DNA from: Limnochordia bacterium
Lineage (GTDB): Bacteria; Bacillota; Limnochordia; DTU080
Direction of reading: 5' to 3'
Length of the DNA: 64,000 nt
NCBI GenBank assembly: GCA_050951545.1
Contig: JBMNJG010000012.1
Location: 288,001-352,000, forward strand
The notes beneath the pieces are model-generated. The model was given only the letters and a program-made list of their open reading frames with translations, ran no database searches and had not been told where the DNA came from. Every line of letters starts with the position of its first letter. The first letter of the stretch is position 1. This document shows positions 5,767-11,170 of this stretch, one piece after another. The position numbers and the translations under genes were made by a program.

Positions 5767-6710
5767 GCGGTCGCGCCCTCCTTCGTGAGAAGCGTGATAT
5801 TCTTCTCCGTAATAGTGACAAAGGCTTCTTCAAGTGTCATCTCATGGCGACGCATCGATACAGTGACACCGCCAGCACCTGCGATGGCCCGTGATATCTC
5901 AGCACGGTAATCCTTGTCAGCCTTGGTTGTTACGGTGTACTTGGCACTTGCTCCCTGCACTTTGGTGATGAATGGCAACGCACCTAGAACCTTGCTAAGC
6001 TCCTCGAGAGGTGTCTCCAGTTCAATAGAGATCTCCGTTTCCTCTGTGAGGCGACGGCGGAGGTCGCTCATTGAGTCCTCAGCCACTAGGCGGCCCTTGT
6101 TCAGGATCCCAATGCGGTCGCAAGTCCTCTCAATCTCCGAGAGTATGTGTGACGAGATAAAGAATGTGCGTCCTCTGTGGTTTTCTTCCATGATAATATC
6201 CCGAACTTCTTTAATGCCATAGGGGTCTAGTGATGAAACAGGCTCGTCAAGAATGACAAGCTCAGGATCGTGCAACATAGCCCGCGCCAGGCCGAGCTTT
6301 TGCTTCATACCTTTGGAGTATCCGGCGAGCAGTTCGTGTTTTCGGTGATCGAGATTGAAAAGCCCTAGGGTGTTGGTGATCCGGTTGTCGATGTCATCTA
6401 CCTGGTAAAGCTGACCGAAAAACCGCAGATACTCGTATGCGGTCATTTCTTCATAGAGATACTGAAACTCGGACAGAACCCCGATGCGTCGTTTGACACT
6501 GAAATAATCAGATGTCAGATCTGTGCCAAAAAGACGCACCGTACCAGCAGTGGGCTTGAGCAAGCCCAGAATCATCATAGCTGTTGTGGTCTTACCTGCT
6601 CCGTTGGGCCCGAGAAAGCCGTAGATTTCTCCCTGTTCCACGTGGATGTTGAGGTTTTCCACGGCTGTTAGTTGCCCAAACCGCTTGGTAAGGCCTTCTG
6701 TTCGGATCAT
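5763..6710 (-). CDS. ABC transporter ATP-binding protein (ABC-2 exporter type)
   Basis: GPNGAGKTT, YSKGMKQ, ILDEP, SSH; start set at ATG 6710 after RBS GAGGAGG. Confidence 0.93.
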   Translation of the reverse strand: MIRTEGLTKRFGQLTAVENLNIHVEQGEIYGFLGPNGAGKTTTAMMILGLLKPTAGTVRLFGTDLTSDYFSVKRRIGVLSEFQYLYEEMTAYEYLRFFGQLYQVDDIDNRITNTLGLFNLDHRKHELLAGYSKGMKQKLGLARAMLHDPELVILDEPVSSLDPYGIKEVRDIIMEENHRGRTFFISSHILSEIERTCDRIGILNKGRLVAEDSMSDLRRRLTEETEISIELETPLEELSKVLGALPFITKVQGASAKYTVTTKADKDYRAEISRAIAGAGGVTVSMRRHEMTLEEAFVTITEKNITLLTKEGATA

Positions 6711-6999
6711 GGCGGCTAACCCTCCTCTTTGAGCTGCAGTATTGACATGAGCGCCCGACATTCAGGTTACGAAACAGCCACTTGCAGGGTGGGCACCCAT
6801 GCGTTGACTCCCTAAGCAAGCCACTTGACGAAGTAGAACGCTAGGCCATCGCTCCGTCCCAATGGCCATCTGCAGATTCGCCGCGTAGGCTATTGCTGCA
6901 TATATGGTCCCTATATTCGCTGTCTTCTTGGTATCCCCTTTCTGCAGAGTGTACCATGATTGGTGTGATTGTCCATTGTGCCGTTTTGGAGTTGTGCCA

Positions 7000-7040
7000 A
7001 TCACGAAAAGCTCTGCATGTTGTGGCAGAGCTTTCGTGAT
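7000..7040 (-). terminator. Hairpin immediately 3' of tmRNA
   Basis: ATCACGAAAGCTCTGC...GCAGAGCTTTTCGTGAT on the minus strand. Confidence 0.7.
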
Positions 7041-7041
7041 A

Positions 7042-7400
7042 TGGTGGAGGCGGCGGGGAGTCGCACCCCGCGTCCGACCAGGAACCAACAGCACTTTCTC
7101 CGGGCGCAGCTTCCCGTTAGTTTCGCCTTCTGGATGGCCGGGAAGCTTGCCTTCCAGAAAGCTATCTCGGTTTAGTGTCGATCCTTTCCTCCGAGCGTAG
7201 GAAAGGGGACCAAGCCTGTTTTAATGACGCCCTTTTCCGCAATCACAGGCCCATCGCGGAGAGGACGGCGACCTATTCTCTAGGCCGCGAGTGCGTACTG
7301 ATTGTTGGCAGTTGTGTTTCTTGCCGCTGTTTATCGAGACCGCGGCGATCTCGGCCCGCTTATACTGCCTGAACGCTGACCGTCGAGCCTACTCGCCCCC
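7042..7400 (-). ncRNA. ssrA: tmRNA, 359 nt, tag (A)ANNQYALAA
   Basis: 5' GGGGGCG pairs with 3' CGCCTCC-ACCA including the G3-U alanine determinant. Tag frame GCC AAC AAT CAG TAC GCA CTC GCG GCC TAG at 7309-7280. Adjacent to smpB. Confidence 0.97.
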
Positions 7401-7892
7401 ATACTGACGTTGGGAGTCACGCTTGAGTGAACGACTGACTTCACGTAGTGTTTCCCGTTTGGCAATAGCCTCGCGCTTATCCCACTGTCGTTTTCCACGA
7501 GCAAGTGCTAGCTCTACCTTGGCATACCCTTGGGGTGTGAAGTAGGCCCGCAAAGGAATCAGAGTAATGCCTTGCTCGCGCGTCTTGCCTATGAGACGTC
7601 GAATCTCAGAGCGGTGCAATAGCAGCTTGCGCGGACGTGTGGGTTCATGATTCCAGCGATTACCGTGAGTGTAGGGAGCTATGTGCGCGTTATACAACAG
7701 CACTTCGTTTCCCTCTATGCGAGCAAAGCTGTCCTGCAGGCTCATTTTCCCGGCACGCATTGACTTGACCTCAGTGCCCCAAAGAGCGATGCCAGCCTCT
7801 AGAGTTTCCTCGATATGGTAGTCGTGACGAGCCTTCCGGTTCGTGGCGACAAGCTTTTCCGGCTGGTGGTTAGATGAACCCGTTGTAGACAA
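7389..7892 (-). CDS. smpB: SsrA-binding protein SmpB
   Basis: NRKARHDY, EAGIALWGTEVKS, RKLLLHRSEI, GKRQWDKRE; TTG start with RBS GGAGG. Confidence 0.97.
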   Translation of the reverse strand: MSTTGSSNHQPEKLVATNRKARHDYHIEETLEAGIALWGTEVKSMRAGKMSLQDSFARIEGNEVLLYNAHIAPYTHGNRWNHEPTRPRKLLLHRSEIRRLIGKTREQGITLIPLRAYFTPQGYAKVELALARGKRQWDKREAIAKRETLREVSRSLKRDSQRQYGGE

Positions 7893-7921
7893 CCAGAAAA
7901 CCTCCCTGCCACCGCATGCGT

Positions 7922-7949
7922 ATTATACCATCTCGCCTACGACAGTCAA
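7922..7949 (-). promoter_or_regulatory. Sigma-A promoter of smpB-ssrA
   Basis: TTGACT-16 nt-TATAAT with extended TG. Confidence 0.75.
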
Positions 7950-7987
7950 GCAGGCATCCGGTTACGTCACCAGATCCGGTTAGATCA

Positions 7988-8212
7988 CTAGATGATGATA
8001 GCTAAGACCATGGAGAGCACCATGAAAGCTATCGCGGCAGCCGTGGTTGCCTTTTCGAGACCAGCGTCAAGCCCTTTGGCCTTGTCAAAGAACATCTGGG
8101 CCCCTCCGCCTATCGAACCCAGTCCCTCACCTGCACTTTGCTGCAGCAGGACAACGAAGATAAGGAAGACAGCGACGATAAACTGGATAACCATCAGAAC
8201 TGTTAGAAGCAC
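7988..8212 (-). CDS. secG: Preprotein translocase subunit SecG
   Basis: Two TM helices, VLLQ...GLGSIGGG; GTG start at 8212 after GAGGTG. Confidence 0.92.
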   Translation of the reverse strand: MLLTVLMVIQFIVAVFLIFVVLLQQSAGEGLGSIGGGAQMFFDKAKGLDAGLEKATTAAAIAFMVLSMVLAIII

Positions 8213-8244
8213 GATGAACACCTCGACCTGCATTCTGCTGACGT

Positions 8245-8273
8245 AGTATAGCACACTCCGGCTCGAGTCACAA
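8245..8273 (-). promoter_or_regulatory. Sigma-A promoter of secG
   Basis: TTGTGA-17 nt-TATACT with extended TG. Confidence 0.55.
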
Positions 8274-8324
8274 CCCCGAGGCCCTCCATGTGACCCCGGG
8301 GTTGCATGCTTTTTCTTGATATGC

Positions 8325-11170
<2,846 letters not shown>

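Follow-up and report, generated by a model that had tools for sequence, protein, structure and literature searches.

Organization of the smpB and ssrA genes

The window analysed here, i.e., the whole stretch of 64,000 nucleotides, belongs to the genome of a Limnochordia bacterium (G000, of family f1), and its minus strand carries in this region the genes eno, secG, smpB, and ssrA (Table 1). The product of smpB matched the Pfam SmpB family (PF01668) with an E value of 1.4e-59 and 200.6 bits, well above the curated cut-off of 27, and the match, from residue 15 to 157, covered essentially the full-length profile (positions 1–142 of 143), as expected of a member of this family. Beyond it, the protein has a further C-terminal tail of 10 residues, ending in QYGGE. 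No second SmpB match was found in the G000 genome, smpB being single-copy.

Table 1. Features of the secG-smpB-ssrA region; positions are those of the window.
Feature	Position	Strand	Details and basis
secG, directly upstream of smpB	7988..8254	-	Pfam SecG, 2.8e-20
Promoter-like site upstream of smpB, TTGACT-16-TGgTATAAT	7922..7949	-	Consensus scan, 11 of 12 matches, TG present
Ribosome-binding site, AGGGAGG	7901..7907	-	8 nt before TTG start (7892..7890), read from sequence
smpB CDS, 167 aa	7892..7389	-	ORF list; stop TAG 7391..7389
Degenerate promoter-like site inside smpB, TAGAGG-17-TATAAC	7689..7717	-	8 of 12; last -10 base is C
smpB/ssrA overlap, 12 nt	7400..7389	-	Codons Gly165-Gly166-Glu167-stop are tmRNA nt 1–12
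ssrA (tmRNA), CCA encoded	7400..7042	-	Rfam RF00023, full model
Reading frame of the tmRNA tag, from GCC (resume codon) to TAG	7309..7280	-	ANNQYALAA and stop; read from sequence and Rfam alignment
Strong hairpin directly after the CCA end	6997..7044	-	-27.1 kcal/mol, z -8.2; equalled in stability by 0 of 200 shuffles

Alignment of the tmRNA to Rfam RF00023 with Infernal gave 159.7 bits (gathering score 47) over model positions 1–374, and the molecule showed all the marks of a standard one-piece tmRNA, namely a full-length match to the model, the G3-U pair, a tag reading frame, and the CCA end. Its acceptor stem is formed by the 5′ sequence GGGGGCG paired with CGCCUCC, which is followed by ACCA, adding up to 7 bp with the G3-U pair included. 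The encoded tag is of the same type as those called by ARAGORN in relatives, such as ANDNYALAAA, and no second tmRNA match above the cut-off exists in the G000 genome. The hairpin that follows the CCA end lacks a U-run and was absent from the list of a simple terminator scan; it is likely the transcript end or a 3′ processing signal.

Read along the minus strand, the junction between both genes is CAA CGT CAG TAT/GGG GGC GAG TAG, where the first nucleotide of the mature tmRNA (G1, position 7400) is also the first base of the Gly165 codon, right after that of Tyr164, and the smpB stop codon corresponds to nt 10–12 of the tmRNA. Thus, there is no spacer between the genes, no in-frame stop codon precedes nt 1 of the tmRNA, and the stop lies within the mature tmRNA on the same strand, an arrangement of the type described in Carsonella. 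The initial annotation of this DNA had placed the smpB stop inside the tmRNA, with the 5′ end of the latter at 7400 deduced from pairing with CGCCUCC-ACCA, and every one of these anatomical details held in the ORF, Pfam, and Rfam analyses: smpB ends 12 nt inside the tmRNA.

No tmRNA was called by ARAGORN in the window, and the tmRNA coordinates used here were taken from Rfam/Infernal. Of 40 class loci, the same program missed the tmRNA in 12, among them those of all six genomes of the G000 family; in Rfam, the missed tmRNAs score between 114 and 171 bits. Annotation pipelines dependent on ARAGORN would overlook these tmRNAs, and hence the overlap. The loci concerned are positions 7042–7400 of the window and L028, L031, L032, L033, L035, L036, L037, L041, L043, L044, and L046.

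Distribution of the overlap among related genomes

The class comprised 95 species genomes, 86 of them with a tmRNA match and 9 without it, and the junction could be obtained for 83, leaving out G048, whose tmRNA has its first nucleotide at base 7 of the contig, as well as G054 and G046, where 25 and 0 nt, respectively, remain upstream before the contig end. The smpB gene was located directly upstream of ssrA on the same strand in 82 of these 83 genomes, and G079 showed no smpB match in the 700 nt upstream. The median spacer was 39 nt, and the 82 junctions included 8 overlaps, 16 spacers of 0–20 nt, 37 of 21–60 nt, 16 of 61–120 nt, and 5 longer than 120 nt.

The eight overlaps were of three different forms. 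The first one, of 12 nt in frame and ending in GGE, was found in G000, G001, and G002, which belong to one genus, and in G003 and G004, from two other genera of the same family. The second, of 13 nt in another frame and ending in LAGAR, was present in G011, a member of another family of the same order, of which all 12 species were sampled. The third, of 8 nt and ending in TRG through a TGA codon, was detected in G012 and G017, from a distant family. The comparison of junctions between related genomes, proposed when the locus was first described, found the overlap conserved in five of the six species of the G000 family, spread over three genera, with SmpB identities to that of G000 from 63 to 81%. 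The residues that precede GGE are not conserved among the overlap genomes.

The sixth species of the family, G005, has a 4-nt spacer. A tree of the locus (smpB plus ssrA, 856 columns, midpoint root) gave the topology ((G000,(G001,G002)),(G005,(G003,G004))), with support of at least 95/92, which fits equally well with one gain and one loss of the overlap or with two gains. At the G005 junction (L028), the end of the spacer, consisting of the stop TAG and GCT, repeats the TAGGCT of the tmRNA itself 16 nt downstream; the spacer may have arisen by a small duplication, which would have moved the genes apart and undone an ancestral overlap, an unproven possibility with 8 of 16 matches.

Outside the class, 80 loci were fetched by SmpB similarity, 52 of which had a tmRNA called downstream, and removal of 4 class members left a diverse sample of 48. 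No overlap between smpB and ssrA was found in these 48 loci, and spacers of 4–16 nt appeared in 9 of them, in counts that include three doubtful rows: L101, where two callers disagree, L085, with an early smpB stop, and L115, with an odd 5′ end.

Within the class, two genomes of one genus, G057 (locus L140) and G058 (L144), showed around 540 nt between smpB and ssrA versus 97 nt in their congener G040, with an unchanged promoter adjacent to the tmRNA; something is inserted between both genes in these two loci.

Promoters and probable transcription across the junction

A consensus scan of the minus strand from 6700 to 8400 yielded three promoter-like sites, located upstream of smpB, upstream of secG, and downstream of the tmRNA (6975..6948). 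The good promoter upstream of smpB noticed in the first reading of the sequence was thus recovered, and it is the best site within the 700 nt upstream of the tmRNA G1, at 521 nt from it. At 60 nt or less from G1, the best site of G000 scored 5 of 13, and consensus scans found no promoter dedicated to ssrA, again as anticipated.

Extension of the scan to the class detected no site with a score of 9 or more at 60 nt or less from G1 in any of the 8 overlap genomes or of the 16 genomes with short (0–20 nt) spacers; sites of this score were found near G1 in 26 of the 37 genomes with spacers of 21–60 nt and in all 21 with longer ones. Of the class genomes that have an overlap or at most 20 nt of spacer, 24 in all, 22 showed a strong site just upstream of smpB. 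The scan, which is a consensus match that leaves promoters of other sigma factors outside its reach, is imperfect, as illustrated by G001 and G004, where it gave no sites of 9 or more upstream of smpB.

The stretch was partly present in six RNA runs, and the contigs of four of them, corresponding to metatranscriptomes, were aligned to it. Contigs from two studies, which as assembled sequences show neither ends, strand, nor level and may include DNA carry-over, cross position 7400: one from X15 (7371–7615) and two from X16 (7345–7412 and 7383–7491). The most two-sided of the junction contigs (X15, record 5) reaches 30 nt into the tmRNA, 1 nt under the 31 that the alignment tool requires of a bridging contig. 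In addition, secG and smpB are joined by contigs of both runs (X15 record 6, 7586–8235, and X16 record 12, 7462–8222). No contig ends at 7400/7401, which in assembled contigs is uninformative on RNA ends, and the contig-free parts, e.g., 8258–8400 or the tmRNA in X16, X17, and X19, are likewise uninformative. Another contig (X15, record 1) matches the 3′ end of the tmRNA (7042–7079) and positions 6929–6968, and differs over the 73 nt between them, in the hairpin region; it may come from a related strain with a different sequence after the tmRNA.

Considering the missing spacer, the lack of promoter-like sites within 60 nt of the tmRNA start, the near-consensus promoter upstream of smpB, and the contigs that cross the junction, smpB and ssrA most likely form one transcript. 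In our proposal, both genes would constitute a tight transcription unit served by the promoter upstream of smpB, probably together with read-through from secG. Regardless of where the promoters lie, every complete smpB mRNA is also a pre-tmRNA, because its stop sits 12 nt inside ssrA and nothing halts transcription before the end of the tmRNA.

Predicted fate of the smpB message

The smpB frame, devoid of a stop codon of its own, would borrow the UAG at nt 10–12 of the tmRNA. The G000 genome encodes an RNase P RNA of type A (107.7 bits for a gathering score of 100), and RNase P would cut the common transcript at the tmRNA G1 once the tRNA-like domain has folded, a cut expected only after the whole transcript has been made, because this domain needs both ends of the tmRNA. 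The upstream fragment would be an smpB mRNA ending in CAG UAU-3′ and lacking a stop codon. As proposed in the initial annotation, the predicted truncation at Tyr164 falls at a codon boundary; it also lies beyond the whole Pfam match.

A ribosome stalled where an mRNA ends, its A site empty, is what tmRNA-SmpB typically acts on. Ribosomes reaching the end of the smpB fragment would stall with Tyr164 in the P site and the A site empty, and their rescue by tmRNA-SmpB would add the (A)ANNQYALAA tag to that copy of SmpB, which would then be degraded. In turn, translation finished before the cut would terminate at the UAG and give normal SmpB ending in QYGGE. Since normal SmpB would arise only from this pre-cut translation, its synthesis per transcript would be self-limiting. 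From the arrangement of the genes, the layout very probably yields a stop-less smpB message; we further infer that the co-transcript is the main source of tmRNA, that the cut takes place on it, and that tagging and decay follow. If such a message is indeed made and its product tagged, the ribosome-rescue system would limit the synthesis of its own protein.

RNase R is the usual partner for the decay of non-stop mRNA. A search for RNB-domain genes (RNase R/RNase II) found none in the G000 genome, and among the 95 class genomes only G023 has one, with none in the three single-contig genomes; therefore, this usual partner is missing class-wide.

Origin and possible role of the overlap

A stop codon lies within nt 1–15 of the tmRNA in at least one frame in 80 of 83 class tmRNAs versus 11 of 40 from outside the class; in G000, the three reading frames of the tmRNA have their stops at nt 12, 70, and 41. 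As class spacers are short and the tmRNAs carry these early stops, the loss of a spacer is cheap, and a small deletion is enough to fuse the frames, with a price of only three residues added to the protein. We propose that the layout arose in this way, by loss of a short spacer in an ancestor of the family, was permitted by the early in-frame stop of the tmRNA, and has been tolerated since. Taken as a whole, the reading that combines a single transcription unit, an RNase P cut leaving a stop-less smpB mRNA, tagging of SmpB, and an overlap kept as tolerated packing is in our opinion the probable one.

The interpretation put forward in the initial annotation was, overall, partly supported. Its argument that an overlap in an unreduced genome suggests regulation rather than compaction found no backing, given the short spacers throughout the class (16 of 82 at 0–20 nt) and the frequent early stops; local packing is enough. 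In each of the five f1 overlap genomes, between 4 and 7 single-base changes in the last 10 codons of smpB would create an earlier stop. Escape from the overlap is thus easy, yet it is absent in these five genomes, and the overlap is at least harmless, having been kept despite these one-step routes. Inheritance alone may account for its conservation in the family; both the branch lengths and the event count are too small for a formal test of neutral persistence. In conclusion, the overlap is more likely to be a side effect of local packing, tolerated and limiting the synthesis of SmpB, than an evolved sensor.

We considered whether the overlap could instead be a selected control circuit, in which the dose of SmpB is coupled to that of the tmRNA, perhaps with an added negative feedback like that of arfA/brfA, where more trans-translation leads to more tagged SmpB. 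The idea of a feedback is in print, in the passage devoted to Carsonella in PMC4131195. The persistence of the overlap in five species and three genera despite the divergence of SmpB and the easy routes of escape, its appearance in three independent forms within one class, and the position of the cut after the entire SmpB domain all speak for such a circuit. However, the non-overlapping G005 is nested inside the family, gain plus loss or two gains fit its history equally, and neutrality is not rejected. Moreover, spacers of 4–14 nt are common both inside and outside the class, and a cut there would leave nearly the same unprotected smpB mRNA, so that the overlap adds little, and the variable residues before GGE also argue against it. 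The analogy with arfA/brfA proposed from the first reading of the sequence has evidence against it on a more specific point, as it needs a route for the release of untagged product when tmRNA-SmpB becomes limiting. No gene encoding an RF-1-domain protein of ArfB size, able to release SmpB untagged upon failure of rescue, was found in the G000 genome (93.9% complete), where the only two frames with this domain, of 353 and 361 aa, are as large as RF1/RF2. The genome does have an RqcH-like gene, but RqcH-type pathways also mark their products for decay. We regard the selected circuit as rather unlikely.

A more elaborate version would see in the overlap a selected device for dose coupling, in which each transcript gives one tmRNA, SmpB is made only before the cut, and the surplus is tagged and cleared, holding SmpB near a 1:1 ratio with the tmRNA in a lineage devoid of RNase R; with at least three origins in the class, this version seems to us equally doubtful. 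An adaptive role of some kind is therefore possible, with a low probability, but not indicated over tolerated packing.

Less probable still is that tmRNA comes mainly from a promoter inside smpB, with full-length smpB transcripts rare or poorly cut, in which case little stop-less mRNA would be formed and the overlap would have no effect. Such a promoter-like site, located at the codons for VENGE..LYN (79 of 82 loci scorable), is strikingly conserved at the nucleotide level where a spacer promoter is missing: TTGAAA-17-TATAAT was found in all 11 f8 genomes and both f5 genomes, and TTGACA-17-CATAAT in G012 and G017. The families that keep it lack a spacer promoter for ssrA, the exceptions among medium spacers being mostly of f8, and in these families the site looks like a real internal ssrA promoter. 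Examples from families f8, f5, and f4 can be seen in loci L012, L013, L009, L011, L015, and L018. The contig depth of X15, of 237 on the tmRNA interior versus around 12–13 on smpB, points in the same direction, although it is a weak measure and the stability of the tmRNA would give the same result. However, in the genus of G000 the homologous site has decayed to 8, 8, and 7 of 12 matches in G000, G001, and G002, respectively, with a C replacing the last -10 base in G000, and therefore the genus has probably lost this internal promoter and depends on the one upstream of smpB. The scan found no site of 9 or more of 12 inside smpB of G000. Furthermore, the smpB mRNA would not escape the cut even if an internal promoter were used, since any message that reaches its stop codon already extends into ssrA, with no terminator before the end of the tmRNA, and would still be a substrate of RNase P.

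Finally, an artefact, whether a mis-assembly, a sequencing error that deleted the real smpB stop, or a misplaced tmRNA 5′ end, is extremely improbable, for although the G000 assembly is a draft of 16 contigs and its tmRNA escaped ARAGORN, the identical 12-nt junction is found in four further species genomes (G001–G004) from independent assemblies, 71–92% of the sampled words of the stretch are present in each of fourteen DNA-type runs, the RNA contigs over 7345–7491 list no differences at 7389–7412, and G1 is fixed by the Rfam alignment, in which the acceptor stem spans 7 bp and includes the G3-U pair.

Comparison with described systems

The precedent of Carsonella cited in the first description of the locus is real: in the passages on this symbiont, Hudson, Lau, and Williams (2014; PMC4131195) describe that its smpB overlaps ssrA, crediting the first notice to Mao et al. 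(2009). There, the authors state as an expectation that tmRNA maturation should leave a non-stop smpB mRNA on which the protein that it encodes would itself act, “an interesting feedback situation”, and report that among 2031 genome projects they “found it nowhere else”. According to the same passages, the overlap is present in just half the strains of Carsonella, partly with ssrA pseudogenes, and the SmpB protein has neither the central loop nor the C-terminal tail. The locus analysed here resembles that of Candidatus Carsonella ruddii, as described in these passages, in that the smpB coding sequence runs into ssrA on the same strand. Unlike what they describe for this extremely reduced symbiont, the genome of G000 has 3.6 Mb and encodes an SmpB with a near-full Pfam match plus its C-terminal tail and an intact tmRNA, and the overlap is kept in most of its family, with two further forms in the class.

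In the full-text literature searched, “non-stop smpB” appeared only in PMC4131195, and no other report of an smpB/ssrA overlap or of a stop-less smpB was found among the records listed; in the passages seen of a 2025 paper on a tmRNA database, the term “non-stop” is absent and the mentions of “overlap” concern other matters. The idea itself was thus published for Carsonella, and what is new here is the overlap in a non-reduced, Bacillota-type class with the full SmpB tail. In terms of what is in print, it is the first one found in a bacterium that is free-living and whose two partners are intact, with several origins within one class. The overlap of Carsonella could be dismissed as genome decay, and here it occurs in a free-living bacterium of anaerobic digesters with a genome of normal size and both partners intact, which makes the idea of self-targeting testable where both genes clearly work.

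The genes arfA and brfA encode back-up rescue factors able to free themselves upon failure of tmRNA. The fate predicted here for smpB is similar to that of these genes in that processing removes the stop codon and, as long as tmRNA-SmpB is active, the protein made is tagged and eliminated. Unlike them, the product would be part of the rescue system itself, the cutter would be RNase P, and no release factor of ArfB size was found. For arfA, PMC4131195 attributes the high frequency of non-stop mRNA to an RNase III site.

The order of the genes also recalls the secG-rnr-smpB(-ssrA) cluster of Gram-positive bacteria, as presented in the relevant part of PMC3534368, with secG preceding smpB and ssrA and, in our case, contigs joining secG and smpB. 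Unlike that cluster as presented there, no rnr gene lies between secG and smpB, which are separated by a spacer (7893–7987), and smpB and ssrA not only touch but overlap.

Other same-strand overlaps between coding sequences and tRNA or tmRNA genes are listed in Table 4 of PMC4131195, such as that of an FtsW-family gene with tRNA-Ile in Helicobacter. As in the locus described here, the coding sequence lies upstream of, and overlaps, a substrate of RNase P and is a candidate source of high-frequency non-stop mRNA; the smpB/ssrA junction differs from the overlaps of that table in involving the rescue system's own protein.
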